This document shows, piece by piece, positions 2,362 to 19,603 of a stretch of 19,605 bases of DNA; the stretch's first letter is position 1; each line of letters begins with the position of its first letter. The position numbers were made by a program, and so were the translations under genes. The stretch is from positions 4,206 to 23,810 of the forward strand of contig JAVZBY010000012.1 of the NCBI GenBank assembly GCA_038874655.1. Direction: 5' to 3'. The notes under the pieces were generated by a model that had not been told where the DNA came from, ran no database searches, and saw only the letters and a program-made list of their open reading frames with translations. This stretch comes from Candidatus Woesearchaeota archaeon (lineage in GTDB: Archaea > Nanobdellota > Nanobdellia > Woesearchaeales > GW2011-AR15).

Positions 2362-3765
2362 ATGCTTAAAAAAACAAAAATAATTGCAACAATAGGGCCA
2401 TCATCAAAAGAATTAAACATCTTGGAAAAGATGGTTGAATCAGGAATGGATATTATTAGAATAAATAGTGCTCATGGGGATATAGAACAATATAAAAACA
2501 TAATAAAGAATATTAATGAATTAAATAAAAGAATAACCTATAAAAAAATTTCTGTTTTGTTAGATGTAAAGGGTCCTGAAATAAGAATAATCTCAGATAA
2601 AAAATATGATTTGAAATATAATGATATTATAGAAATTTTCTTTCCAACAAATTCTATGAAATCTAAGAAAAAGGATACTATGAAAATGCCCATTTTTAAT
2701 CATTTTTTTAAATCACAAACAGGAAATAAAATATTGGTTAATGATGGTTTATATGAATTAGAAATAATTAAAAAAAACAAGAATAGTATTGTTTTAAAAG
2801 CATTAATGAATTTACAGATAACTAATAAATTAAGAGTCAATATCCCAGGCGTTGAATATGATTCTGAGATATTAAGTGAAAATGATAAGAAAGTTATTTT
2901 AGAATTAAAAAACGAATTTGATTTTTTAGCTTTATCATATGTTAGAAATAAAAATGATCTCATTAATGCAAGGAATTTTTTAAATAAAAATAACATAGAT
3001 GTAAAAATTATCTCAAAAATAGAAAATATAGCAGCTGTTAATAATTTTGATGAAATTTTAGAGTATAGTGATGCAATCATGGTTGCCCGTGGCGATTTAG
3101 GTGTAGAATTAAAACATGAAAAAGTGCCAATAATTCAAAAAGAGATTATTAAAAAATGTAATCAAAAAGGTAAAGCAGTGATTACAGCAACACAAATGCT
3201 TCAAACAATGGTAGAAAACCCAGTTCCAACAAGAGCAGAAACAAGTGATGTAGCTAATTCTATATTAGATGGCACTGATGCTATTATGCTATCAGCTGAA
3301 AGTGCAACAGGAAAATTTCCTATTAATGCAGTTAAAGAAATGACAAAAATTGCAAAAGAAGTTGAGCCATATGTTAAATCTAATGTTGTTTTAGAAAAGA
3401 CAGAAAATATCTCAGAGGCAACAGCAAAGTCTATATCAGAAATTACAAAATTATTAAACATAAAAAAAGTAATTGCATTAACTCATACAGGATTTACTGC
3501 AAAAATGTTATCAAGATTTAGATTAAAACAACCAATTTATGCAATATGCAATGAAAAAATAGCAAAAGAATTAATTTTGTATTATGGTGTAGAACCATTT
3601 ATTTTTAATAATGGCTTAGAAAATATGAAAAATTTTATTAACACTTTAATTAATCAAAAGAGACTATTAAAAGAAGATTTAATTTTAATTGCTTCAGGAA
3701 CAAAACCAAATGAAACTAATTTAATAGAGATAAATTATGTTCATGAAATTTTGAATAAAAATTAA
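2362..3765 (+). CDS. pyk: Pyruvate kinase
   Basis: KTKIIATIGPSS, RINSAHG, DVKGPEIR, ISKIEN, signature DAIMVARGDLGVE, TATQMLQTM, PTRAETSDVAN, DAIMLSAESATGKFP. ATG 2362 preferred over TTG 2353. Confidence 0.98.
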   Translation: MLKKTKIIATIGPSSKELNILEKMVESGMDIIRINSAHGDIEQYKNIIKNINELNKRITYKKISVLLDVKGPEIRIISDKKYDLKYNDIIEIFFPTNSMKSKKKDTMKMPIFNHFFKSQTGNKILVNDGLYELEIIKKNKNSIVLKALMNLQITNKLRVNIPGVEYDSEILSENDKKVILELKNEFDFLALSYVRNKNDLINARNFLNKNNIDVKIISKIENIAAVNNFDEILEYSDAIMVARGDLGVELKHEKVPIIQKEIIKKCNQKGKAVITATQMLQTMVENPVPTRAETSDVANSILDGTDAIMLSAESATGKFPINAVKEMTKIAKEVEPYVKSNVVLEKTENISEATAKSISEITKLLNIKKVIALTHTGFTAKMLSRFRLKQPIYAICNEKIAKELILYYGVEPFIFNNGLENMKNFINTLINQKRLLKEDLILIASGTKPNETNLIEINYVHEILNKN

Positions 3766-3810: not shown

Positions 3811-4398
3811 ATGAAAATAAAAATTGGTGTTATGGGTTCTTCAGAAATACCAAAAGATAAAATATTAATTGAAAAAGCCAGAGAAGTAGGAAGAGAAATA
3901 GCAAGGCATAATTGTATCTTAATAAATGGTGCTACTACAGGATTGCCAGATGAATCAGCAAAAGGTTGTAAAGAAGAAGATGGCTTTGTATTAGGAATTA
4001 GTCCTGCAAAAGACATGAAAGAACATGTTGAAGTTTATAGATTACCATATCAAAATTATGATTCAATAGTTTTTACAGGAGTAGGATTTAATTTTAGAAA
4101 TATTTTCAATATAAGAACCTCAGATGCTATTGTATTTATAAGAGGTTCATTAGGCACTTTAAATGAATTTACTATTGCATATGAAGATGGTAAAATTATT
4201 GGTGTTTTAGATAAAACCGGTGGCATAAGTGCTTTTTTTGATGAATTAATAGAAATATGTAAAAAAGAGACAAATGCAATTATTATTAAGGATTCAGATC
4301 CTAGAAAATTAATAAGGCGCTTAGTTCAAGAAGTAAAAAAAAGGTATTATGTTCCTAAGAACTCAAAAACAAAAACAAAAGCAGATAACGCAAAATAA
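3811..4398 (+). CDS. LOG/SLOG-family Rossmann-fold nucleotide-binding protein
   Basis: IGVMGSS, AREVGREIA, NGATTGLP, GISP, RNIFNIRTSDAIVFIRGSLGTLNEFTIAY (variant of the PGGxGTxxE motif). SD AGGTGA at 3801-3806. Confidence 0.88.
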   Translation: MKIKIGVMGSSEIPKDKILIEKAREVGREIARHNCILINGATTGLPDESAKGCKEEDGFVLGISPAKDMKEHVEVYRLPYQNYDSIVFTGVGFNFRNIFNIRTSDAIVFIRGSLGTLNEFTIAYEDGKIIGVLDKTGGISAFFDELIEICKKETNAIIIKDSDPRKLIRRLVQEVKKRYYVPKNSKTKTKADNAK

Positions 4399-4661: not shown

Positions 4662-5714
4662 ATTAGGTGGGGTTTTTATTTATTTTTTGATAGATATTTT
4701 TTTATAAGTTTATTTATAATTTTTCTACTTATTAATACTGTCATAGCAGGTAGAGTTATCTTAAATTCAGGTGTGATAAATGCAACAGGGATAGATATAA
4801 ATAATGGATTGCTATATGTAGATAGTGTCAATAATAAAATAGGAATAGGTAGTATATTACCAAGTTCAACATTAGATGTTAATGGTACTTTGAGTGTAAT
4901 AAATAAGTCAGGAGATTCACTCTTATATGTAGATAGTGTCAATAATAAAATAGGAATAGGAACGAACTCGCCTTCTTCAAGACTAGAGATAGGTAATGGA
5001 GGTGTCCTTAAAGTAAGTGGCTCATCCTCTCCAGCATATCCTACCACAGGAAGTGGTGTAGAAATTACTTATGATAGTGACGGATATTATGAAGCTTCTG
5101 GTAGTGGTGTAGGGGTAGGACTAATTCAATCAGTTGATAGAAATATAGGGCTTTATAAAGATTTTCGTATAAGATTTAATAACACTTTATTTCAATCTGG
5201 AAGTACAGCAACTACAAACCTTCTTATGCTAACATCTTCTGGTAGAGTTGGTATATTAACAACATCACCAGCATATACTTTAGATGTAGCAGGCCAAGCA
5301 CATGCATCTAGTTTTCCAACTTCATCTGATATAAGATTTAAAGAAAACATTACAAATGTATCTAATGCTATTGATAAGGTAAAAAAGATAAGAGCTGTCT
5401 ATTTTGATTGGAATAAAAATTACACAGAAATGGGAAGAAGTACAGGACATAGAGAATTAGGTGTTATTGGTCAAGAAATAGAAAAAGTTATTCCTGAAGT
5501 TGTTACATATTGGGGTGATGGGAATTATACTGCTGTTGATTATTCAAGATTGTCAGTTTTAGCTATTCAAGCTATCAAAGAACAACAAAAAATTATAGAA
5601 TCTTTAAATAAAACAATAACTTTATTAAATGAAAAAATTGAATATCTAGAAAAAAAGAATCAAAATATTTCTCTTGAAATAGAAATTCTGAAAAATTTAA
5701 CATCAAATAATTAA
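4662..5714 (+). CDS. Tail-fibre-like protein with N-terminal signal peptide, three IGIG/VGI-xxxP-xxxLD/EV repeats and C-terminal peptidase S74 (intramolecular chaperone) domain plus coiled coil; start uncertain (first canonical start is GTG 4773)
   Basis: SDIRFKENI...VYFDW...GVIGQEIEKVIPEVV...VDYSRLSVLAIQAIKEQQ is the S74 pattern, starting at 5325. The frame is open from 4617 and encodes RYFFISLFIIFLLINTVIA upstream of 4773. Confidence 0.85.
   Translation: MRWGFYLFFDRYFFISLFIIFLLINTVIAGRVILNSGVINATGIDINNGLLYVDSVNNKIGIGSILPSSTLDVNGTLSVINKSGDSLLYVDSVNNKIGIGTNSPSSRLEIGNGGVLKVSGSSSPAYPTTGSGVEITYDSDGYYEASGSGVGVGLIQSVDRNIGLYKDFRIRFNNTLFQSGSTATTNLLMLTSSGRVGILTTSPAYTLDVAGQAHASSFPTSSDIRFKENITNVSNAIDKVKKIRAVYFDWNKNYTEMGRSTGHRELGVIGQEIEKVIPEVVTYWGDGNYTAVDYSRLSVLAIQAIKEQQKIIESLNKTITLLNEKIEYLEKKNQNISLEIEILKNLTSNN
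4813..4960 (+). repeat. Exact 37-bp direct repeat (4813-4849 and 4924-4960), period 111 bp
   Basis: TATATGTAGATAGTGTCAATAATAAAATAGGAATAGG occurs twice and encodes (L)YVDSVNNKIGIG. Confidence 0.95.
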
Positions 5715-7492: not shown

Positions 7493-7837
7493 TTGTTTTT
7501 TGATTTTTCTATCAATTTAGAATTAATATTAAAATTAGATGAAAAAGAATATACTTTTAATCTACTAGGGGAATTTAATTTGATTAGGATAGGCACATTT
7601 AACAATCCTGAATTAAGAGATAATGAACAATATTTGAATATGAATAGAATTTTTCCACATATCCAAGGGTTATATAAAAATCAAACATATCTCACTTTAG
7701 AGTTTTCTAATCGAATTTTAAAGATATATTATCAAGGAAAACAAGTTAGTGCTTTGAAAACTGGTGAAACATATAGTCAAACTATTGAAACATATAATCT
7801 TACTAAACCAAAATTAATAATTAAATACAATCCTTGA
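7493..7837 (+). CDS. Hypothetical beta-rich protein; start uncertain (TTG 7493 or ATC 7511)
   Basis: Open frame filling the gap between rnhB and ileS with plausible codon usage. No confident motif. Confidence 0.55.
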   Translation: MFFDFSINLELILKLDEKEYTFNLLGEFNLIRIGTFNNPELRDNEQYLNMNRIFPHIQGLYKNQTYLTLEFSNRILKIYYQGKQVSALKTGETYSQTIETYNLTKPKLIIKYNP

Positions 7838-7854
7838 AAAAATTAAAAAAATAA

Positions 7855-10800
7855 CTAAAAACAAACAATAATCTTTTTCTTTTTAATTTCTGCTTCAAAT
7901 TTATTTTTACATTTACTACTATCTTCGTTTATAAATAATTCACTAGCACCTACTTTTTCTTTCAATTCTTCCTTAAATTTAGTTAATCTTTCTGTCATTT
8001 CTTTATCTAAATGTAGGTATAATTTTATTGTATCTTTCTTTTTTAATCCAGCTTCTTTTCTAAATGACTGAATTCTTCTGATTAATTCTCTCAAATAACC
8101 TTCATTAATTAAATCCTCATTCATTCTTATATCAAGGTAAATATTGCCATTATCAAAAACACCATAACTGTAATTATTTCCGACCTTTCTTTCAATAACT
8201 AAATGTTTTTTATTTAATTTTATTTCTTTTCCTTCTATTTCAACAACATAACTATTATTTTCTTTAATTATACTTTCTGCAATCTCTTTACCATTCTTTT
8301 GTACTATTTTTATTAATTCTTTACTTAAACTTCCAAATTCTTGTCCTAATTCCTTATAATTTGGTTTTACAATTAATTCTGCTTCTTTAAATTCATTTAT
8401 TACTGAAACTTCCTTAACATTAGTCAATCTTTTGATTAATTTATCTAAATCTTTCAAAGCAGATATAACTTCCTTATTTTGTGTTTCAATTAAAACTTTT
8501 TGTAGAGGCCATCTTATTCCAATTTGCGCTTTTTCTCTTGCACTTAAAATTCCCTGAACTATGTCTTTAACTAAGCCAATTTCTTTTTCAAGTTCATGAT
8601 TAATCAATTTAGAATCATATTTAGGCCAATCATATAAATGGATTGATTCTAAATTTAATCTTTTATCATCACCAAACTCTCTTTTGAAATTTTGATACAT
8701 CATTTCTGTTATCATTGGAGTTATTGGTGCCATTAATAATAAAATTTCTTTCATTACAGTATAAACAACATATAAAACTAATTCTTTTTCTTCATCAGTG
8801 CCAGAATTGGCTTTTTCTCTAACCATTTGTATATAAGTTCTTGATAGTTCTAAATACAAATTCTCAACTGCCCATGGAACTTCATTTAAATAGTATTTGT
8901 CCATTAATTCACTAACTTTCTTTATTGTAGAATTAAGTTTAGATAAAATATAGTGCTCCTCTTCACTTGCATTTCTTAAAATTTTTTTATCTATCTTTTC
9001 AGGATTTTTTCCAGTATTTTTTGCTAAATCCAAAACAAAATTATGCAAATTCCACAAAATATTTAGATTTCTTCTCTTTATTTCAACATCTTCAAAATTG
9101 TAATTTAAATCTAATCCAGGATCACAAGCACCAATACTATAATATCTAAAAGTATCTGCACCATATTTACTTGTAACTTCATCAGGACTTATTACATTTC
9201 CTAAACTCTTAGACATTTTTCTGCCTAATGCATCATTCACAAATCCTGTCATATAACATGCTTTAAATGAAATATCTTCCATAGCCAACATACTTGCTAC
9301 AAACAATAAATTAAACCAACCTCTTATTTGGTCTTTACCTTCTGTAATAAAATCAGCAGGATACAATTTTTTAAACAAATCTTCTTTATGTGGATATCCC
9401 AAAGATGCCCAAGAATCAACACCAGCATCAATCCAAACATCCATAATATCAGGATATCTTTTCATTACTCCTTTACATTTAGGACAAGGAATTGTAACTT
9501 CATCAATCCAAGGCTTATGTAAATCTTTAGGTATGTGTGAAGCATTATATTTTTTCAATTCCTTTCTTGATTCAATAACTAAATGCTCATTACATTTTTC
9601 ACATTTCCAGATTGGTAAAGGAGAACCCCAATATCTTTGTCTTGTAATTCCATTATCCCTTAAATTTTCTAACCAAGAATCAAATTGATTTGAGCCAGCC
9701 CAATCAGGAACCCAATAAATCTTTTCTTTATTGAGTTTTCTCATTTTTGGAATTAAATCTTCAACCTTAAAAAACCATTGTGTTGTTGTTCTATAAATTA
9801 CAGGATTTCTGCAACGCCAACAATGAGCATAATCATGTTTATAATCTTCTTTATAAACAATAGCATTTCTTTTTTCTAATTCTTCAATGAATTTTTTGTT
9901 ATCTTCTTTTGCATGCCAACCTGTAAAAATAGCCATATCTCTATAAAAACCACTCTCATCAACATTATTAAAAGGAATAATTCCTTCCCTATGCCCAACT
10001 TCATAATCTTCTGGCCCACAGCCAGGAGCCATATGTACTAGTCCTGTTCCACTCTCTATTGTAACATATTCTTCACTTAAAACAACAACATGCAATTTTT
10101 TTGATTTTTTTCTAACTTCTTCATAATGCTTTTCTAAAATATCAGAAAACGGATGTTCATATTCAATACCTTCTAATTCCTTTCCTAATAAAACTTCCAT
10201 CACCATATAACTTTTTCCAAGTTTTTCTTCTATTAAATCATGTGCTAATTCCTTCGCTATAATCCAAATTTCATCATCTACTTTTGCTTTTATATATTCA
10301 ACATTAGGATTAACCATAACTCCTAAGTTAAAAGCAATAGTCCAAGGCGTTGTTGTCCAAATAACTAAATACACATTATCTTTTGCTTTGTTATTATTTT
10401 TCGCTTTTTTATTTTCTTTAATCTTAAATTTTACATATATGGATTTATCAACAACTTCTTTATATTCTAATTCATGTTTAGCCAAAGCAGTTTGACAGCT
10501 ATAACACCAAGTTATAGTCATTTGTCCTTGGTATAATCTTTTTTTCTCATGTGCTTTTTTTACAAGCCACCATGTTCCTTCAATATAATCATTATCTATT
10601 GTTTGATAGGCATTATCAAAATCTAGCCAAACACCTAATCTTTTAAAATCTTTATTCATTTGTTTCAAGTTAGAAACAGCAAAATCTTTACATTCTTTAA
10701 CAAATTTTTCCAAACCAAATTTCAATATATCTTCTTTTGTTTTTAATCCTAATTTAGCTTGTACTTTTCCTTCAGTTGGCAAGCCATGCATATCATATCC

Positions 10801-11034: not shown

Positions 11035-11356
11035 TAAATCACCCTTGCTAATATAAAAATTAAATAATATTCACTATTGTAGAATTTAGAAATTTATTTA
11101 GATTATTTTTTAATAAAAAAATTTTGCCAATTTTTAAAATGTGATTACAAAAATAAAAAAAATCCATTCAAAATAATATCTTTTATTTCTTTATAAATCT
11201 TTTCAGTTAAAAAAATTTAATTCAATTTTTTTATATTTAGCAAAACACAAAATTTATATACTAGTATATCATTTTTGTATACTGAAATACAAAATAAATC
11301 AGTTTTTAGATTTAAATCCAAATAGTATTAGAATAAAAAAATAAGGAGAGGTTAAA

Positions 11357-12151
11357 ATGGATACAAAGGTTAATGGATTAGCTGAAACATTAAAAAGTTT
11401 AGGCATTGTTTCAAGTGCTTCAGATGCTATGAATTTAGCTAAAAACATAGTATCAACAGAAGAAAAATTAGCTAAAAGCTATGGAAGAATAACTCCTGCT
11501 CAAACAAAAACAAAAACATATCAAGAAGAAATTGAGGAACTTATAAGAAAAACAAGTCCTGAATACAAGAATTATCATATTCCAGTTAAAGGCTATCAAA
11601 GAGAAACAAGAAAATCTAATGATTTAGCATCAGAACTAGTAAATAATTTTTCAAAACAAAATGAAACATTAAAACCCTCTAATAATAAAATAACGAATAT
11701 TAAACAAGAAAAAGATGTTTTTTATGAATTAGAAGAATTAACAGGAATAAACTCAGAAAAAGAAAGTATGACAAATATGCATTTAATTGATAAAGAAGTT
11801 TATAAAGAAGAAGTTTATACAGACATTGAAAATAGTGATAAAGTTTTAAAAGAATTAATTAATCAACCATTACAAGAAAATGAAGAAACAATAACAACTT
11901 ATCCACAAACAACAGAAGTTTTACTTAATAATCAACAAGAAGAAAAACAAGATAATGATTTCATAATTGAAGTCAAAGAACTAGAACCAGAAAAACCTGC
12001 TTTTATAATTGATAAACCAGAAATAAAAAATGAAACTAAGGAAAAACCAGAACAATTATTTAAGGAAATAAAAGAAGATAAATCAAAGCCAAGAGAAATA
12101 AAAAATCCAATTGAGTCAATAGATTTAATGAATTATTTTAAGTCTAAATAG
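11357..12151 (+). CDS. Hypothetical protein: ordered N-terminus, long acidic/low-complexity middle, short hydrophobic C-terminal motif
   Basis: Strong SD AGGAGAGG (11344-11351). Rich in E/K/N/T. Ends IDLMNYFKSK. Confidence 0.85.
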   Translation: MDTKVNGLAETLKSLGIVSSASDAMNLAKNIVSTEEKLAKSYGRITPAQTKTKTYQEEIEELIRKTSPEYKNYHIPVKGYQRETRKSNDLASELVNNFSKQNETLKPSNNKITNIKQEKDVFYELEELTGINSEKESMTNMHLIDKEVYKEEVYTDIENSDKVLKELINQPLQENEETITTYPQTTEVLLNNQQEEKQDNDFIIEVKELEPEKPAFIIDKPEIKNETKEKPEQLFKEIKEDKSKPREIKNPIESIDLMNYFKSK

Positions 12152-12266: not shown

Positions 12267-12674
12267 ATGCAGCATTTTGTATGGAAAGAAGAATATTCTG
12301 TAAATATAAATCTAATAGATAAACAACATCAGAAGTTAATAAAAATTATGAATGAATTATATGATGCTATTTTAACTTTAAAAGCAAAGGAAAAAATAAA
12401 TGATATTTTCAAGCAATTGTTTGATTATGCTAATTACCATTTTTCAACAGAAGAAAAATATTTTGAAAAATTCAACTTTAAGTATAAAAAATCCCACATA
12501 AGAAAGCATAATTTTTTTAAAAAAAAATTAAGCTCTTTATATAAAAAAATGAATGAAAACGAATTAGAACTTTCTTTTAAATTATTGGACTTCTTAGAAG
12601 ATTGGTTAATTGAGCATTTAAATACTGAAGATAAAAAATATATACAATGTTTTAAAGAACATGGTCTTAAATGA
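12267..12674 (+). CDS. Single-domain (bacterio)hemerythrin
   Basis: W..EYSV...IDKQH, HFSTEE, HIRKH, WLIEHLNTEDKKY together give the full H/HxxxE/HxxxH/HxxxxD di-iron ligand set. Confidence 0.95.
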   Translation: MQHFVWKEEYSVNINLIDKQHQKLIKIMNELYDAILTLKAKEKINDIFKQLFDYANYHFSTEEKYFEKFNFKYKKSHIRKHNFFKKKLSSLYKKMNENELELSFKLLDFLEDWLIEHLNTEDKKYIQCFKEHGLK

Positions 12675-12945: not shown

Positions 12946-14340
12946 ATGAAAAAAACCTATTTATTAATCATTTTCATTTTGTTAGCTATTGTCAATCTTA
13001 ATTTAGTTTTATCAAGTTTAGATATCTCAGACATTACACTTGGCAGTGATACACAAGAAAGAGCAAAAAATACAACTACAACAATTAATATTAAAAATAT
13101 TGGTGATTCAAAATTATCATTACTTTCATTATCTTTTAATGGAGATTCTAAATACAATTTAAAATATAATTTATCAAAATCAGAGATTAATCCAAATGAA
13201 ACAATTCAATTAACAATTCAAGGTTATGTGCCATTAGATTTTGATGCAGTAAACTCAAAAGGCAAAAAAACTTCTTTTAAAATAAGTGATTTTACTATTT
13301 CAGGTAAATATCAAAATAACTCAGATTATAGTATAACAAGATCTTTATTTATGCAAGCTGAAAACAAATTAAGAATTACAACAGGAAGTAAAATTCTTAT
13401 CAACGATGAGGAGAAAACATTAAGAAATGAAAGATCTTATGATATAAAAAGGTCTGATAAAATAGAATTAAAAATTGAACTGGAAAATAGATTCTCAACC
13501 TCAGGAGATTGTGAAAAAGATTCATCTGATTGTGCAATTGATGACATAGAATTGACTTTAGAATCAAGAAATTCTGATTTGGATGTTGAAAAAGATATCA
13601 GTTATTCAAAATTAAATCCAAACAAAAAATCCTCAAAATCAATAACATTTACAATTCCAGATGACTTAGATGAAGATGAGTATACATTAGATATATGGCT
13701 AATTGGTGAAGATGAAAATGGTGCTTTACATGGAGATTATTGGGAATTCACATTAAATTTAGAATTGCCAGATGATGAAGTTTCAATAACAAATGTTAAT
13801 TTATTTCCTGAGGAATTAAATTGTAATGAAAGAAACTTTAGGTTAGATGTATCTATAAAAAATACAGGTAAAGATGACCAAGATGAGGTTTCAATTTGGG
13901 TAGATTCAACAAAATTAGATATAATGGATTCAATTGAAAATATACTATTAGATGAAAATGAAAAAACAACAAAATCTTTTTTCTTAAAAACACCAACTAA
14001 TATAAAGCCAGGAATATATCCAATATTAGTAAGAGCAAATGTCAATAATGATGACGAAACAGACAGAGAAGTTGTTTATTTAAAAATTAATCCTTGCAAT
14101 ACAACACAAACACAACCAACCCAACAAAATAATCAACAGACAAACATTACAAACAATCAAAATACAAACAATCAAAATCAAGATTCAAATGTTATAGAAA
14201 TTCCACCAACACAGATAATCTATGGAACTGAAAAAAGCAACTTTTTTGAATCAAAAGAATTTATATATATTTTAATTGGATTTATAGTAATTTCTGTAAT
14301 CTTATTATTAATCTTAGTTGCAATACTAGCTAAGAGATAG
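12946..14340 (+). CDS. Secreted, C-terminally anchored surface (S-layer-like) protein with Ig/CARDB-like domains
   Basis: Signal peptide MKKTYLLIIFILLAIVNLNLVLS. Ig-like starts INIKNIGD, IELENRF, VSIKNTGKDD. Q/N/T linker, then a TM helix and KR. Several N-x-S/T sequons. Confidence 0.82.
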   Translation: MKKTYLLIIFILLAIVNLNLVLSSLDISDITLGSDTQERAKNTTTTINIKNIGDSKLSLLSLSFNGDSKYNLKYNLSKSEINPNETIQLTIQGYVPLDFDAVNSKGKKTSFKISDFTISGKYQNNSDYSITRSLFMQAENKLRITTGSKILINDEEKTLRNERSYDIKRSDKIELKIELENRFSTSGDCEKDSSDCAIDDIELTLESRNSDLDVEKDISYSKLNPNKKSSKSITFTIPDDLDEDEYTLDIWLIGEDENGALHGDYWEFTLNLELPDDEVSITNVNLFPEELNCNERNFRLDVSIKNTGKDDQDEVSIWVDSTKLDIMDSIENILLDENEKTTKSFFLKTPTNIKPGIYPILVRANVNNDDETDREVVYLKINPCNTTQTQPTQQNNQQTNITNNQNTNNQNQDSNVIEIPPTQIIYGTEKSNFFESKEFIYILIGFIVISVILLLILVAILAKR

Positions 14341-14973
14341 ATTTTTAAATAAATATTCAAATTTTTTAACCTTTAATCTTGCTTTTTTTAATTTATTATT
14401 TGCTTCTTTAATTAATACTTTCAGGTAATCATCAGAAACTAAAATTTTCTTATTTCTAGAAAATATTGTATTAATCTTATCAGGTATAAAAATTTCAATT
14501 ATCACTCTTTTTTTAAAGCTTAATATAGCACTTCTTCTAAACCCAGAATTATTAGCTATTTTAAGCAACTTATCAGCCAAATCAAGGTTTTCAGCACATA
14601 TATGTAAAATTGGTGCTTCCATTCTAAACCAAACACTTTCCTTAGGTAAGTTGTTTTCAAAATTTTTTATTATTCTCTTAATATCACTTAACTTAACATA
14701 ATCATGGCTTACAAAAAGCCAATTTGTCTCATTTTTCTTAATCCCTTCTTTAACTAACATTATTCTACCCGCACAACTACTAGTAGTATAAAAATTAGGA
14801 TGACTATTAATTAAATTAATTGTACTTAAAATTTCTTTATCTATTTCTCCTTTCTTTGATTTATCATTTTCAAATGCTTTTTTTAAGGCAATTTTTTTTT
14901 GGTTTTGGAACATTTGATTTATTAATTTTTCATTATATTTTATTTTGCTTGTTTTGTATTCTTTTTGATACAT
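14326..14973 (-). CDS. taw3: tRNA wyosine/wybutosine methyltransferase Taw3/TYW3; conserved part probably begins near ATG 14913
   Basis: DKSKKGEIDKEI...IN....YTTSSCAGRI, WLFVSH, EAPILHI, A..SGFRRS. Overlaps the convergent surface-protein gene by 15 bp. Confidence 0.93.
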   Translation of the reverse strand: MYQKEYKTSKIKYNEKLINQMFQNQKKIALKKAFENDKSKKGEIDKEILSTINLINSHPNFYTTSSCAGRIMLVKEGIKKNETNWLFVSHDYVKLSDIKRIIKNFENNLPKESVWFRMEAPILHICAENLDLADKLLKIANNSGFRRSAILSFKKRVIIEIFIPDKINTIFSRNKKILVSDDYLKVLIKEANNKLKKARLKVKKFEYLFKNLSLS

Positions 14974-14992
14974 ATGTATCTAAAAAGACACA
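14955..14992. promoter_or_regulatory. Tandem 18-bp dyad operator-like element centred on the taw3 start codon
   Basis: TGTATT-CTTTTT-GATACA-TA-TGTATC-TAAAAA-GACACA, with perfect core GATACATATGTATC (14967-14980). Minus-strand TTTATAGA box at 14996-15003. Confidence 0.7.
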
Positions 14993-15057
14993 ATCTCTAT
15001 AAATTTTTTTATTATAATTTGAAAATTCTTAAATATACTCATTTGTTTTTTAAAAAA

Positions 15058-15332
15058 ATACAACTCAAAGAGTAATGTTTTTAAGTGAGTTAGAACAATG
15101 GTGTAATGAAGGAATTCCAATAGAAGTGAATTTTACAACATCAAGAGAAGAGGCAAATAATTTTGCAAAGCAATATCATCAACCACCATACTTGTTTTTT
15201 CAATGCCTTATGATGACCTTATTTTTGGTTTGCCTTTTTCATTAGAAAAAAATAAGAAATTGTGGTGATTGGTATAGAACAATTGAATCAATCTTATTAA
15301 CTCATATTGATTATGAGATTGAGCATATATAA
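15058..15332 (+). pseudogene. Disrupted small gene with ADP-ribosyltransferase/Tpt1-like motif pattern
   Basis: RVMFLSELEQWCNEGIPIEVNFTTSREEANNFAKQYHQPP, then ILVFSMPYDDLIFGLPFSLEK in a shifted frame, then IRNCGDWYRTIESILLTHIDYEIEHI-TAA back in the first frame. The first frame has TAG at 15243-15245. Confidence 0.55.
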
Positions 15333-15334
15333 TT

Positions 15335-16141
15335 TTAATACTTTCTCATAACCTCTATACTAATAGCTGGCTCTAAAATTTTTATATACATTGGACAAAA
15401 AACATATTCATAATTATACAATTTACAGAAATCTATAATTTTTAATTTTTCTTCCTCATTTCTATACTTTACAACAACATTTAATCCATTGCTATCTTTA
15501 TGCACTATTTCAAAATCCTTTAATTTTTCTTTAATCTCATTTGTTTCTTTTCCTATTTTTTTTAATTTGCTTTTTAGAAGTTTTAATTTTTCCTTTAGAT
15601 CTTTTGAAAAATCTTTAACTTCTTTTTTCATGTTTTCTTTAAAAAAAGTTTCATAACTGGAATTATCAAATGCAATGAAGCCACCATAGCCTATATTTAT
15701 AGGTTTCCAATGCCCAAAACTACCTAAAATTAAATCACCATATTTTGCTTCATTTGTTCCAATAGAGCCAGAAGCATCATTGATTAAAAAGCATTTTTTT
15801 TCTTTGCAAAAATCATTAATTAAAGCCATGTTTTGTAATGCAATATAGCTAGGCATAGAATTTATCAATAAAACAGAACTTTCATCAACATAATTTTTTA
15901 AAATATTTAAATGCTTTTTTTCTATGATTCCGTAATTTGTTTCAATATAATTTTTCTCTAACTTTAATCTATCAGCAAATTGGTAATAAGTAATCCATCC
16001 GCCTTGATCTTGAATAAAAATTTTTTTCTTTCCAAGGCTTTTTGATAATTTCAAAGCTAATAAAATAGAAGTATTGCCTCTATCTGTGAAAAAGATATGT
16101 TTTTTTGAGGTTAATTTTTTGAGAGGTTCAATATTTTTCAT
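15335..16141 (-). CDS. Short fold-type I PLP-dependent protein, DegT/DnrJ-like
   Basis: FTDRGNTSILLAL, LINDASGSIG (PLP Asp), GDLILGSFGHWKPINIGYGGFI (Schiff-base Lys in SFxxxK...GG). Confidence 0.75.
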   Translation of the reverse strand: MKNIEPLKKLTSKKHIFFTDRGNTSILLALKLSKSLGKKKIFIQDQGGWITYYQFADRLKLEKNYIETNYGIIEKKHLNILKNYVDESSVLLINSMPSYIALQNMALINDFCKEKKCFLINDASGSIGTNEAKYGDLILGSFGHWKPINIGYGGFIAFDNSSYETFFKENMKKEVKDFSKDLKEKLKLLKSKLKKIGKETNEIKEKLKDFEIVHKDSNGLNVVVKYRNEEEKLKIIDFCKLYNYEYVFCPMYIKILEPAISIEVMRKY

Positions 16142-16169
16142 TTTTATGAAAATTTTCTTTTAATTTTTT

Positions 16170-17192
16170 TTATTTCTCATAAATCTTTTTTATTACTTCC
16201 TCAATCTCAGGGTTTGTTATATTTAAATCTTTTATAGGATAATGTTTAATTATGTAATTTATAACTTTTTCAATTTCATGCTGTTGTTTATCAACTTCTA
16301 TTTTGACTTCATAATCTTGTTTTTCCAAAATTTTTATTCCCTTAACTTTTGTTTCATCTATTTTATAATCAATCTTATCTTTAAATTTAATTTGCACTAT
16401 TTTTGTTTTTAAATAATCATTCTTTAATTTTTCCAAACTACCATCATAAACAATTTTCCCTTTATTAATTATTATTATATTTTCGCATAATTCTTCTATA
16501 TCTTCTAAATCATGAGTAGTTAATAAAAAAGTAATATTCTTTTCTTTATTCACTTTTTTTATAAATTCCCTAATTTTTTCTTTTGAAACAATATCTAAGC
16601 CAATAGTTGGCTCATCTAAAAAAACAACATCCGGCTCGTGCAACAAAGAACTAATTAATTCACATTTCATTTTTTCTCCTAATGATAATTGTCTAACAGG
16701 TCTTTTTATTATATCTTCTAACTCAAAAAGTTTCACAAAAAAATCCAAATTTCTTTTATACATTTCATCAGGAATTTCATATAAAACTTTGTTTAATTCA
16801 AATGTGTCAATAGCAGGCAGATCTAGCCAAAGTTGTTGTTTTTGGCCAAAAACAACACCAATTCTTTTCACATATTTTTCTCTGTCTTTCCATGGTTCAA
16901 AACCATTAACATTAACACTTCCAGATGTTGGATATAAAATTCCAGACAATATTTTAATAGTTGTTGATTTTCCCGCACCATTAGGGCCAATAAAACCTCT
17001 AATTTCGCCTTTTTTCACATTAAAAGAAATTTCTTCTAATGCTTTAATCTCTATATATTCTCGTTTAAACAAGCTTTTTAATGTTGAAAAAAACCCAGCT
17101 TCTTTTTTAAATGTCTTGAAATACTTTTTTAAATTACTTACAACAATTATATCATTATTTTTTTTATCTTGATTTTTTTTATTATCTCTCAA
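16170..17192 (-). CDS. ABC-2 type exporter ATP-binding subunit
   Basis: Walker A GPNGAGKSTT, Q-loop VFGQKQQL, signature LSLGE, Walker B VFLDEPTIGLD, H-loop TTHD. TTG start with SD GAAGGTGA. Confidence 0.96.
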   Translation of the reverse strand: MRDNKKNQDKKNNDIIVVSNLKKYFKTFKKEAGFFSTLKSLFKREYIEIKALEEISFNVKKGEIRGFIGPNGAGKSTTIKILSGILYPTSGSVNVNGFEPWKDREKYVKRIGVVFGQKQQLWLDLPAIDTFELNKVLYEIPDEMYKRNLDFFVKLFELEDIIKRPVRQLSLGEKMKCELISSLLHEPDVVFLDEPTIGLDIVSKEKIREFIKKVNKEKNITFLLTTHDLEDIEELCENIIIINKGKIVYDGSLEKLKNDYLKTKIVQIKFKDKIDYKIDETKVKGIKILEKQDYEVKIEVDKQQHEIEKVINYIIKHYPIKDLNITNPEIEEVIKKIYEK

Positions 17193-17252
17193 AAATAATC
17201 ACCTTCTCTATTTTCAACTATTTTTTTATTATTAATCTTTTAATTATAATCT

Positions 17253-18035
17253 TTAACCACCAGCACTTGTGTAATTTTTAATTGCTCTTTTCCATAGATA
17301 AATACTAAAAACATAAAATATAAATACAATTACAAAAGTATAAACTAAATTATCCTTATAATTCTCAATTAAAATTTTGCTTGGAATGTACGCCAATACA
17401 GTTAAAGGAATCAAATATCTAAATATAAAACCTAAAAAATTACTATAAATTTCATTAGGATATTGAGCATAATTTTTTATTGTTCTTATAAATTCACCTA
17501 ATCTGCCAATTCTTACAGCATTTAAAATAATAGAATATTTTAAAATTGCTATAGAAAAAATAAATAATAATGCAGTTGATAAAAAAATCAAAAAAATCAA
17601 AATCTTATCAAAAGTAAAAATAATGCCTAATTTGACACTGGAATAAATTATCAATATTAAACCTAATAAAAAATCTGCAATATGCTCTAACCCAAAATTT
17701 GTAAAAGATATGTATTTTAATGTATCAATTGGATATAATAAATAACGGTCAAACATACCAGTTCTTACATCATATGATAAACTCCAATCAACCCTTTGAA
17801 AAAACATTCTATCAATTGAATTTATTAGCATAAAAATTCCCTGTAAAAGTAAAATTTCATTAAAACTCCATCCAGGAAAACCATTTGTATGCATATATAT
17901 CAAAATTGTTATTAAAGGTAAAGCCAAATCAAAACTCAATAAAGTAAACATCATTAAAATAAAATTTGCCTTAAACATCATTTGTTCTTGTATTCTTAGT
18001 TTAATACTTTTGATGAAAAAATTTATGGTTTTCAT
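17253..18035 (-). CDS. ABC-2 family permease (ABC2_membrane_6/DUF990-like)
   Basis: About 6 TM segments. GWSFNEIL, VRTGMFDRYLLYP, YPNEIY, terminal YTSAGG. ATG 18035 is preferred over TTG 18068, which lies inside the HEPN gene. Confidence 0.9.
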   Translation of the reverse strand: MKTINFFIKSIKLRIQEQMMFKANFILMMFTLLSFDLALPLITILIYMHTNGFPGWSFNEILLLQGIFMLINSIDRMFFQRVDWSLSYDVRTGMFDRYLLYPIDTLKYISFTNFGLEHIADFLLGLILIIYSSVKLGIIFTFDKILIFLIFLSTALLFIFSIAILKYSIILNAVRIGRLGEFIRTIKNYAQYPNEIYSNFLGFIFRYLIPLTVLAYIPSKILIENYKDNLVYTFVIVFIFYVFSIYLWKRAIKNYTSAGG

Positions 18036-18045
18036 TTTTTTAATT

Positions 18046-18477
18046 TTATTTTTTATCAAGTTCTTCAATATATTTTAAAATTAGGTTATATATCCTTTTT
18101 GCTTCATTAATTTTTTCAATTAGCTCTTTAATTTCAAAAGAAAAACCATAATACTTAGATTTATTTCTTTTATCTCTTAACTCATCTAAAATAATACTAT
18201 CTTTTTGGTTTAAGATTTTTTTTTCTTTTGCATATGAAATATTTGCTTGGTGGGAATAAGATTTTAAATTATTTTTCAATAAAATAGCATCTAACAGTTC
18301 TCTTATTGCTTCGTATAAATTCTCAAAGACAAATTTTGCATTTATTCTATCAATGTTTAGATTAGAAAAAAACACATATCTCTTTTTTGCGTCATTAATT
18401 AGAGATTCATATTCTTTTTGATTAAAGTTAGTCTCTCTTATTTCACCTATTTCTTGATAATATTCAAATGGTTTCAT
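18046..18477 (-). CDS. HEPN-domain protein (putative toxin), RxxxxY variant
   Basis: All-helical 143 aa. LYEAIRELLDAIL...SH...LRDKRNKSKYYG. ATGA overlap with the upstream MNT gene. Confidence 0.8.
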   Translation of the reverse strand: MKPFEYYQEIGEIRETNFNQKEYESLINDAKKRYVFFSNLNIDRINAKFVFENLYEAIRELLDAILLKNNLKSYSHQANISYAKEKKILNQKDSIILDELRDKRNKSKYYGFSFEIKELIEKINEAKRIYNLILKYIEELDKK

Positions 18478-18986
18478 GGAAAAAATCCCTCTATTAAAAT
18501 TCCTTGCTTAATATTATCCAACAAGTTCTTATTTTTAGATTTCTTAATATCTTCTAAATAATGTAATTCTATTTTTTTATTAAAAAAATTCTCATACTTC
18601 TCAAGATTAATATCTATCTTTTTATCTACAGCAATATCAATATCAGATTTTTCAGTATCCTGTCCTAAGCTATAACTTCCGAATAAAATAATTGTTTTTA
18701 TATCTTTTTTAATCATATCTTCAATTAAGTTGGATTCATAAAGTAAAAATAGATTTGTAAATTTTTTATAAACAAAAAGAAATTTATTATCAAAATTTAA
18801 ACTTAAAACATAATTTTTTCCAATAATCTCTTTTTTTATCAAACCTTTTTTTAATAAATCGTCTGCATATTTTAATGTTGTAGCAGGCGATATATTTAAT
18901 TGCCTGCTTAATTCCCTAACATGTATTTTTTTTAAAGGATTCTTTACAAAATAAATCCAAAGTTTATTGTTCAATAAATTAAACAT
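18474..18986 (-). CDS. wHTH + minimal nucleotidyltransferase (MNT) fusion (putative antitoxin/autorepressor)
   Basis: HVRELSRQLNISPATTLKYADDLLKKGLI (HTH) and ILFGSYSLGQDTEKSDIDIAV (GS-x10-DxD). Confidence 0.92.
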   Translation of the reverse strand: MFNLLNNKLWIYFVKNPLKKIHVRELSRQLNISPATTLKYADDLLKKGLIKKEIIGKNYVLSLNFDNKFLFVYKKFTNLFLLYESNLIEDMIKKDIKTIILFGSYSLGQDTEKSDIDIAVDKKIDINLEKYENFFNKKIELHYLEDIKKSKNKNLLDNIKQGILIEGFFP

Positions 18987-19017
18987 ATGTTTAATAAAAT
19001 AAACAATTATTTATTAA
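18968..19017 (-). promoter_or_regulatory. Promoter and tandem 18-bp dyad operator centred on the wHTH-MNT start codon
   Basis: TGTTCA-ATAAAT-TAAACA-TA-TGTTTA-ATAAAA-TAAACA (18968-19005), with perfect core ATTAAACATATGTTTAAT (18978-18995). Minus-strand TTAATAAA at 19010-19017 has a purine-rich BRE and lies 23 nt from the ATG. Confidence 0.78.
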
Positions 19018-19057
19018 TTTTTCTTTTTTGAAATAAAAGGCAAATATTTTTTAAAAG

Positions 19058-19603
19058 CTAGCCTCCACTTCCAGCATATTTTTTTATTGCAATACTTAAA
19101 AATATTTTACATGCAAAAATTAAAATAAAAAGCCATATAATTTGTAATCCAATAAACATGATTGATCCAGATAAAGTAAATTTTTCTATGTAAATTTGTA
19201 TAACACCATATCTTATATAATAAAAAGGTAGAAATTTTGACAAATTAAAAAAAAAAGTGCCAAAAAACTCCAATGGAATAAATTCACCAGAGGCAAATCT
19301 AATGAAAAAAAACAAAAGCCATTGTAAAGATTCAATTTTATAAAGCCAGAAAGCAAAAATACCAATGAAAAAGTTTATGAAAAAATTAAGGAAAAAAGCA
19401 AAAACAATTGCAATAAAAAATAAAGAAAAAATCAAAAAATTCGGAATTCTAATTTTGAATATTAAAAAAGAAATAATAAAAACAGGAATGACTTCAACAA
19501 AAAAAGCAAACAATCTTTCTGCTGTTGTAATTGCTAAAAATTGATTGATAAGAGAAAAAGGTTTTAATAAATCTTGGTTTAGTTCGCCTGCAACAATCTT
19601 GTC
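19058..19603 (-). CDS. Second ABC-2 family permease (ABC2_membrane_6-like); 5' end lies outside the window
   Basis: The frame stays open past TTG 19513 to the edge: DKIVAGELNQDLLKPFS...; also ASGEFIPLEFF, FLPFYY, terminal YAGSGG. Confidence 0.9.
   Translation of the reverse strand, partial: DKIVAGELNQDLLKPFSLINQFLAITTAERLFAFFVEVIPVFIISFLIFKIRIPNFLIFSLFFIAIVFAFFLNFFINFFIGIFAFWLYKIESLQWLLFFFIRFASGEFIPLEFFGTFFFNLSKFLPFYYIRYGVIQIYIEKFTLSGSIMFIGLQIIWLFILIFACKIFLSIAIKKYAGSGG

Follow-up and report, generated by a model that had tools for sequence, protein, structure and literature searches.

In a 19,605-nt stretch of genomic DNA from a Candidatus Woesearchaeota archaeon (hereafter the window; positions 4,206 to 23,810 of contig JAVZBY010000012.1, assembly GCA_038874655.1), two genes begin within the same kind of element, a pair of consecutive dyads centred on the start codon. 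One encodes a winged helix-turn-helix domain fused to a minimal nucleotidyltransferase (wHTH-MNT) and is followed by a gene for a HEPN-like partner; the other is taw3, the gene of a Taw3/TYW3 methyltransferase. On the evidence of the sequences compared here, the double dyad is the standard 5' end of wHTH-MNT genes in DPANN archaea and most likely represents the operator by which a leaderless wHTH-MNT/HEPN-like cassette represses itself. For the second copy, the reading that is favoured, if not firmly, is that a wHTH-MNT promoter-operator module has been displaced to taw3, where it provides a new start and probable repressor control. Antitoxin-type autoregulatory operators are of a known kind; what appears to be new is that the double dyad is centred on the start codon and embedded in codons, and that it is found on a tRNA-modification gene.

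The window has a G+C content of 24%, and its proteins have their best relatives in metagenome-assembled genomes of Woesearchaeota and Nanoarchaeota. A preliminary description made from the letters alone had pointed to a shared double-dyad architecture at the two genes, and the coordinates, sequence, symmetry axis and N-termini proved to be as claimed. The features concerned are these (scores out of 15 and 20 refer to the family scans described below):

14326-14973, minus strand: Taw3/TYW3 methyltransferase gene, full open reading frame (ORF), N-terminus MYQKEY
14326..14913, minus strand: taw3 core, beginning at the ATG that matches the start of homologues (PF02676 over residues 26-209)
14914..14973, minus strand: twenty lineage-specific codons (MYQKEYKTSKIKYNEKLINQ) in the taw3 frame, of which codons 1-7 form the downstream dyad
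14955..14992: double dyad at taw3, axis between 14973 and 14974, with a central 14-bp perfect palindrome GATACATATGTATC; 14/15 and 19/20
14996..15003, minus strand: TATA-like box TTTATAGA of taw3, after an A-run, at -30 to -23, with TTTATA at 15003-14998
15075..15334, plus strand: divergent neighbour of taw3, a frameshifted remnant bordering the rearranged intergenic region
18046-18477, minus strand: HEPN-like partner, 143 aa, with a PDC-M05B match and RNKSKYYG in place of Rx4-6H
18474-18986, minus strand: wHTH-MNT gene, 170 aa, winged helix plus minimal nucleotidyltransferase, N-terminus MFNLLN
18968..19005: double dyad at the wHTH-MNT gene, axis between 18986 and 18987, putative autoregulatory operator; 14/15
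19008..19017, minus strand: TATA-like box TTAATAAATA of the wHTH-MNT gene, at -31 to -22

Each site consists of four 7-mers in the orientation → ← → ←, which form two 18-bp dyads with centres 20 bp apart, and in both the symmetry axis falls directly 5' of the A of a minus-strand ATG, that of ORF 14326-14973 in one case and of ORF 18474-18986 in the other. Read on the minus strand, the half-sites are TGTGTCT and TGTATCT, then TGTATCA and TGTATTC, at taw3, and TGTTTAT and TGTTTAA, then TGTTTAA and TGTTCAA, at the wHTH-MNT gene; the two genes do carry different half-sites, as had been proposed, of TGTAT type and TGTTT type respectively. The pattern TGT-N12-ACATATGT-N12-ACA has only these two matches in the window (14955-14992 and 18968-19005), and none of 200 dinucleotide shuffles contained any. 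The core ACATATGT by itself is poor evidence: it is found at the same two places only, with 0.37 copies expected, but 14/200 shuffles also reached two. Of 19,567 centres in the window, both sites rank in the top four as 38-bp palindromes (15/19 arm positions), the others being centred at 12519 and 11262.

Because the pattern had been picked after looking, the same geometry was rescanned with any trinucleotide. When words made entirely of A and T were allowed, there were 2 occurrences for an expectation of 2.37, no more than chance would give, whereas words with at least one G or C gave 2 against 0.04 expected and 0/300 simulations with two or more. A relaxed pattern with up to 2 mismatches was weakly above chance in the window (4 found, 0.92 expected), and its two additional matches, at 3157 and 10641, both lie within coding regions. 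Coincidence in AT-rich DNA would accommodate the four palindromes of 15/19 and the chance frequency of the all-A/T geometry, yet it is confronted with the absence of the exact pattern from every shuffle, with the rescan restricted to G/C-containing words, and with independent loci that have the same architecture at 48/86 family genes and at almost no other ATG; its probability is accordingly negligible.

Two further palindromes of the window may be recorded here. A 38-bp palindrome at 11244-11281 (15/19, core ATATACTAGTATAT), in the divergent intergenic region between the isoleucyl-tRNA synthetase (IleRS) gene and ORF 11357-12151, ties for the best in the window. Another, at 16834-16857 inside an ABC ATPase gene, has 12 perfect bases per side around its centre at 16845 and contains TGTTTTTGGCCAAAAACA; its TGTTT-type ends resemble the wHTH-MNT half-sites, and it may serve as an operator inside the gene or simply be there by chance.

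The surroundings of both start codons have the layout of leaderless messages. GGTGAT-type Shine-Dalgarno motifs are present at several genes of the window and at none of ATG 14973, ATG 18986 and ATG 1250, each of which has a TATA-like box about 25-30 nt upstream; given the usual distance from TATA box to start in archaea, this placement suggests that transcription would begin at the ATG itself. TATA-like boxes had been described as lying 22-23 nt upstream of the two genes, and the boxes are indeed there, although the quoted distance fits their 3' edges only. A sigma-70 promoter scan of the window returned 37 hits with 41.5 expected, its bacterial model being uninformative for an archaeon. Were the messages leaderless, the downstream dyad would be transcribed and might act as a 5' hairpin over the AUG, controlling translation or stability of the mRNA. 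Such an RNA-level role is highly improbable, because the hairpins are weak, although the second dyad is able to pair, UG of the AUG included (-1.7 and -3.2 kcal/mol; 7/200 and 40/200 shuffles fold as well or better), and because the upstream dyad, which would not be transcribed, is at least as well conserved as the downstream dyad in the family consensus.

To survey the family, 33 wHTH-MNT homologues were aligned (alignment A2) and used for a profile scan of genome contigs. The scan matched at least 599 stretches, 460 of them confirmed relatives, and the best 80 of the 460 (1.04 Mb; loci L001-L080) were kept, amounting with the window to 1.06 Mb in total. A hidden Markov model of A2 gave 100 domain hits on the ORFs of the 80 loci and the window, 89 of them full length, and the 86 of these 89 wHTH-MNT ORFs that had a usable in-frame ATG were scored for the operator, out of 15, with the 5-mer at +2 as the reference to which the 5-mer at -19 and the reverse complements of those at -2 and +19 were compared. 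Four TG-led half-sites in the order → ← → ←, from -19 to +19 around the ATG, were found with at least 12/15 in 48 of the 86 genes; 58 reached at least 10/15 and 28 scored lower. Of the 58 genes scoring at least 10/15, 41 have a TATA box that begins at -32 (a match to TTTAAATA, one mismatch allowed), the family box spanning -32 to -25. In every case the start codon is composed of the last linker base, A, and the TG of half-site 3, and codons 1-7 are therefore part of the operator. Most half-sites are of the TGATA class, with TGTTA, TGCTA, TGTTT, TGTTC and TGTCC among the others. A third in-phase dyad lies over the TATA box in 21/58 genes (for example the TGATA-class operator at L035 9926-10002), whereas a fourth dyad downstream is essentially absent (both half-sites in 0/58, one half-site in 1/58), and two loci, L009 (1677-1770) and L050 (9334-9425), have two double dyads, one on each side of the TATA box. 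The design recurs at dozens of wHTH-MNT genes on contigs of Woesearchaeota, Pacearchaeota, Aenigmatarchaeota, Undinarchaeota and Micrarchaeota.

The preliminary description had proposed to test for enrichment at start codons; of the 34,400 other ATGs in the 1.06 Mb, 28 reached 12/15. Twenty-three of these are opposite-strand or adjacent readings of wHTH-MNT sites, two belong to the taw3 site, and three are unrelated and score exactly 12; among the same ATGs, taw3 is the only gene outside wHTH-MNT/HEPN-type cassettes with 13/15 or more. In a scan that made no use of the ATG, 76 sites had at least 18/20, and for 73 of them a wHTH-MNT start is no more than 150 nt away, the exceptions being the taw3 site and two sites of L032, one of them 273 nt from a weak wHTH-MNT-like ORF and the other between MNT-like and HEPN-like ORFs. 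The exact TGT-type pattern, TGT-N12-ACA-NN-TGT-N12-ACA, has 9 matches in 8/80 loci, all at or upstream of wHTH-MNT-type ORFs, where about 0.1 would be expected by a hand estimate from base composition.

Some members of the family depart from this scheme. About 28 low-scoring genes (e.g. L072 3396-3433, L047, L031, L057) often have a GTTACC ... ATGGTAA dyad overlapping the start codon, and others, such as that of L014, have a double dyad placed upstream of the ATG. The L032 double dyad at 8750-8787 seems orphaned within an island (7500-9441) that comprises an MNT-like ORF, a HEPN-like ORF and a divergent minus-strand wHTH-MNT-like ORF, and its half-site, TGATAAC, is that of the locus's main wHTH-MNT operator.

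The protein encoded behind this element has domains that suit the role of a self-repressing, antitoxin-like regulator. Its winged helix matches Pfam HTH_24 (25.8 bits; cut-off 21.9) and its nucleotidyltransferase fold matches Polbeta (32.5 bits; cut-off 26.9) and NTP_transf_2 (29.6 bits; cut-off 21). Nucleotidyltransferases have the signature G-S ... D-x-D, and G103, S104, D115 and D117 are invariant in the 33 wHTH-MNT sequences. The NCBIfam MntA model NF047752 reaches 33.5 bits, under its cut-off of 60, over residues 94-141 only, while PADLOC matches the adjacent genes to PDC-M05A (E 1.6e-8, wHTH-MNT) and PDC-M05B (E 7e-7, partner). In an AlphaFold model (mean predicted local distance difference test score, pLDDT, 95.5), Foldseek likened the N-terminal half to ArsR/SmtB/MarR repressors, with residues 1-65 resembling HlyU and CzrA, and the C-terminal half to the MNT antitoxins 8xeh_E, 8xeo_B, 1no5_B and 7bxo_E from solved HEPN-MNT complexes. 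No solved structure covers the whole protein: a sequence search of the PDB returned 0 matches, and Foldseek matched the halves only, with query-normalised TM-scores of at most 0.42. A homodimer prediction scored 0.79, against 0.01 for the best control, with runs that agree in at least 93% of contacts, a partner pLDDT of at least 90 and a symmetric predicted interface (residues 68-92, 1-6 and 160-169). The mark that it passed was also reached by 20/30 proteins solved as same-chain pairs and by 1/23 solved as single chains, counts that apply here only approximately, an own alignment having been used; the prediction supports, but does not show, formation of a homodimer, and the pass may stem from likeness to solved MNT dimers.

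The gene of the partner overlaps the wHTH-MNT stop by 4 nt, and a homologous ORF lies directly downstream in 64 of the 89 family genes. The partner (P0003) has RNKSKYYG at the place of Rx4-6H and matches PDC-M05B and no Pfam HEPN family; the motif of its relatives, RN...Y[YERD]G, has 62 instances across 90 ORFs, with the catalytic histidine replaced by tyrosine. In the available part of PMC4621449, both R and H of the Shewanella HEPN toxin were needed for toxicity. The change from histidine to tyrosine thus questions whether these partners are nucleases, and, because RN...YYG stands where Rx4-6H would be, the pair is not filed as a canonical HepT/MntA system; the likeness appears to be one of layout, and the partner is best called a putative toxin. 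On the minus strand the cassette (18046-18986) is flanked by one ABC2_membrane_6 permease gene at 19058-19603 and another at 17253-18068, in a region (15335-19603) that continues close downstream with the ABC ATPase gene (16170-17192) and a 268-aa ORF; the order is the same in L001, and transcription of the entire transporter operon may depend on the promoter of the cassette.

The position of the cassette between two ABC-2 permease genes, as if inserted, and the travelling of the module with the gene through many DPANN lineages could also be taken to mean that the palindrome is a mobile-element scar or recognition site, an end or attachment site for insertion and excision of the cassette, rather than an operator. 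There is, however, no recombinase gene beside the cassettes in the window or in L001, the element is present at one end only, with neither convincing direct repeats nor target duplications found on its flanks, and its fixed register with TATA box and ATG in 41/58 genes points to transcription; a scar is very unlikely. A search of plasmid and phage collections with the wHTH-MNT protein (tblastn) gave no match.

In light of its position, symmetry and conservation, the double dyad is most readily understood as an operator. The module would unite a TATA box near position -30 with four half-sites, each led by TG, that span -19 to +19, and with a start codon supplied by the last linker base and half-site 3; to judge by the TATA spacing, its mRNA would be leaderless and start at that ATG. 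The wHTH-MNT protein would most likely bind its own operator as symmetric dimers, one per dyad, and with the dyads two turns of the helix apart a pair of dimers would occupy -19 to +19, next to the TATA box on its downstream side. Archaeal repressors that bind just downstream of the TATA box block recruitment of RNA polymerase; dimers covering the transcription start would probably act in this way, resulting in negative autoregulation. Winged-helix repressors of the MDR1, LrpA, Phr and Lrs14 type bind over the transcription start, and the present system is like them in having an operator that follows the TATA box closely and overlaps the start, and an N-terminal half that resembles the ArsR/SmtB/MarR type. 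Unlike them, it has a nucleotidyltransferase domain, an operator that lies partly in its own first seven codons, and a mobile cassette in place of a metabolic regulon.

Among antitoxins, the MNT protein SO_3165 of Shewanella oneidensis binds and represses its own promoter, which contains two palindromes (PMC4621449, in the available passages). As in HepT/MntA (SO_3166/SO_3165), the operon has two genes, MNT first and HEPN-type second, with overlapping frames; in contrast to SO_3165, which according to the same passages has no predicted DNA-binding domain, the MNT is here fused to an N-terminal winged helix, and where Shewanella has two dissimilar palindromes at -10 and -35, a regular double or triple dyad is centred on the leaderless start codon. 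The same paper draws a comparison with MqsA-type operators, where the operon of the antitoxin likewise has a pair of similar palindromes in its promoter. The MqsA-type systems are bacterial, involve a different DNA-binding fold and show no centring on a start codon. MqsA also controls genes beyond its own operon, which the taw3 site would parallel. Both subunit models of the PADLOC candidate defence system PDC-M05 are matched by the adjacent genes of the window; this pairing of a nucleotidyltransferase with a HEPN-domain protein is enriched in Archaea, with an antiviral role that is unconfirmed, and neither its regulation nor an operator nor a fusion to a wHTH is mentioned in the available passages of PMC12988326. 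Makarova et al. (2009; PMC2701414, as far as the available part goes) speculated that a DNA-binding component of MNT-HEPN modules acts in trans; the fused winged helix would provide such a component in cis, and with it a DNA-binding function that earlier surveys of MNT-HEPN thought missing. Searches of the literature on HEPN/MNT, PDC-M05, DPANN nucleotidyltransferases with HEPN, HepT/MntA autoregulation, regulation of Taw3 and wyosine, and leaderless archaeal toxin-antitoxin systems yielded no account of such an operator design or of a regulated taw3.

The product of taw3 is a divergent DPANN member of the Taw3/TYW3 family of tRNA-Phe wyosine methyltransferases: PF02676 matches residues 26-209 (E 3e-49, 167.6 bits, cut-off 27; profile 3-209 of 211), the NCBIfam Taw3 models align from residue 21 with scores under their cut-offs (NF047731, 140.3 bits, cut-off 200; NF003267, 163 bits, cut-off 190), and the invariant TTSSC.GR core is present. 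Recognisable Taw3 sequence does begin about 20 codons in, as had been noted, and since homology starts at residue 21 (NCBIfam) or 26 (Pfam), ATG 14913 is the usual start of the family. An alignment with 21 homologues puts the first residue of 18 of them in the M21 column; the other 3 are extended by unrelated sequence, and MYQKEYKTSKIKYNEKLINQ is found in none. The closest relative among the matches listed, L001, a Woesearchaeota contig of 6,911 bp with the same gene order (identity 86% for Taw3 and 87% for wHTH-MNT), has a 72-bp intergenic region before a taw3 that starts at the M21-equivalent ATG, with no counterpart of the double dyad or of the 20 extra codons. The extension is lineage-specific, a point that the preliminary description had asked to be checked, and the absence of the element from L001 and from all aligned homologues is the reason to regard the module as probably acquired in this lineage; all alignments tried place it in an insertion of about 70-80 nt whose borders are ambiguous in AT-rich DNA.

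The copy at taw3 is a complete module, with TATA-like box, scores of 14/15 and 19/20, an ATG in register and no Shine-Dalgarno motif, and by these likenesses it is very probably a displaced copy of the wHTH-MNT promoter-operator module. As to its origin, the simplest account is that taw3 captured the 5' end from a cassette that was then lost, because MNT-HEPN modules are inserted and lost between close relatives (PMC2701414, available part) and because the resident cassette lies between two permease genes. A capture of promoter and first codons together had been suggested beforehand; the shared promoter-operator agrees with this, while the extension itself has no protein homology to wHTH-MNT (about 1 bit). 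At taw3, gain of the module in this lineage would have created a new leaderless start with 20 extra codons and probably brought transcription under the control of a wHTH-MNT repressor, be it the product of the gene 4 kb away or a paralogue that is not seen here. That the module regulates taw3 today is a tentative proposition, rather less secure than its origin.

A number of observations weigh against this account. The element is not conserved at taw3, being missing in L001, and may be a recent neutral leftover. Its 14-bp core, GATACATATGTATC, occurs in 0/80 loci, and none of the 86 wHTH-MNT genes has TGTAT-type half-sites centred on its own ATG. Neither the 20-aa extension nor a 33-aa plus-strand reading from ATG 14974 scored more than about 1 bit against the wHTH-MNT profile. 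A donor search with 14914-15040 (blastn-short against the 80 loci and the window) gave short AT-rich matches only: a 15-nt match to the wHTH-MNT TATA region, in the window and in L001, and two 19-nt matches, of which the one inspected (L065) is antisense in a HEPN-like coding region and has no dyad. ATG 14913 has a TATA-like stretch of its own some 20-27 nt upstream, and the old start may still serve taw3 independently of the element. The wHTH-MNT promoter of L001 is 91% identical to that of the window and retains its double dyad, with the 31 nt upstream of the operator (TATA-like box included) and the coding downstream dyad identical, while 4/18 positions of the upstream dyad have changed, one of them towards the distal half-site, as would fit an operator that is either loosely constrained or co-evolving with its protein. 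Across the family, operator class appears to track the protein tree only loosely: it needs 19 changes, where 200 shuffles of the labels needed at least 21 and on average 24.

Several of these points would be expected of an inert relic, in which a head-to-tail wHTH-MNT/HEPN cassette upstream of taw3 was deleted and its promoter, operator and first codons were left fused in frame, with a promoter that may fire but a site read by no regulator and nothing under selection. The absence of the element from L001 and from all 21 aligned Taw3 homologues fits such a course, as do the gain and loss of MNT-HEPN modules between close relatives (PMC2701414, available part) and the lack of any TGTAT-class member among the 86 family genes. 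So does the divergent neighbour: an intact 93-aa ORF in L001, it is reduced in the window to a 56-aa ORF, beyond whose stop the homology continues and switches frame twice, and the region has thus been decaying or rearranging. On the other side, the taw3 site is as intact (14/15, 19/20) as working family operators, the extension is open and in frame with taw3, for which the chance is about 0.07, and profile scoring and blastn-short found no coding trace of an MNT or HEPN gene. These three arguments are indecisive if the event was recent, and an inert relic, though rather unlikely, is a serious competitor to a displaced module that still exerts control over taw3.

If taw3 is under such control, the identity of the repressor matters. 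A separate paralogue is favoured by the behaviour of co-resident double-dyad genes: in 4/4 loci that hold two, the operators disagree in at least 3 of the 7 positions of the consensus, and the two sites of the window differ at 3/7. The neighbouring wHTH-MNT protein is favoured by the loose relation between operator class and protein tree, and TGTAT and TGTTT half-sites stand side by side in single operators of TGT-class relatives (L014, L050), so this protein might read both sites of the window. No second wHTH-MNT paralogue is visible in the 19.6-kb window. The 219-aa wHTH protein at 1250-1909, which the preliminary description had named for binding tests on both sites, is not a wHTH-MNT relative: only the wHTH region is common (hhalign probability 24%), and no double dyad lies at its start. 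Likewise, a paralogue with TGTAT-type half-sites on its own start, for which a search had been suggested, was found neither among the 86 family genes nor in the window, and control of taw3 by a paralogue with an orthogonal operator is, from the sequences compared, neither shown nor excluded.

A stronger proposal, that wHTH-MNT has been recruited as a true transcription factor for taw3, with the state of the cassette setting the level of Taw3, is improbable. Were it true, the balance between free repressor and repressor engaged with the HEPN-like partner or consumed in infection would determine Taw3 level and with it wyosine modification at position 37 of tRNA-Phe, so that a switch for defence or stress would be linked to decoding fidelity, or to how readily an anticodon-loop nuclease attacks the tRNA. 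A portable 60-bp module of TATA box, operator and start codon would then be a device for putting DPANN genes under cassette control.

More broadly, DPANN archaea are uncultured or barely cultured, and to our knowledge their gene regulation is almost unstudied. The double dyad offers a concrete and testable cis-regulatory design, a leaderless promoter with half of its repressor sites in the first seven codons of the regulator, from which it follows that the N-terminal peptide and operator specificity should co-vary; the family provides a natural set of related operators and putative repressors in which this may be pursued. Among the sequences compared, taw3 is the one case found of the module on a housekeeping gene, representing either a snapshot of promoter capture after loss of a cassette or the first instance in which tRNA modification is tied to a cassette of this type.

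Two other genes of the window deserve brief mention. A 313-aa protein encoded at 4773-5714 on the plus strand contains Peptidase_S74, an endosialidase chaperone domain characteristic of the tail fibres of phages. A 464-aa protein encoded at 12946-14340, also on the plus strand, resembles the PACE-CTERM putative S-layer model (E 5.8e-19, below cut-off), and the 3' end of its gene is convergent with that of taw3, the two overlapping by 15 nt.

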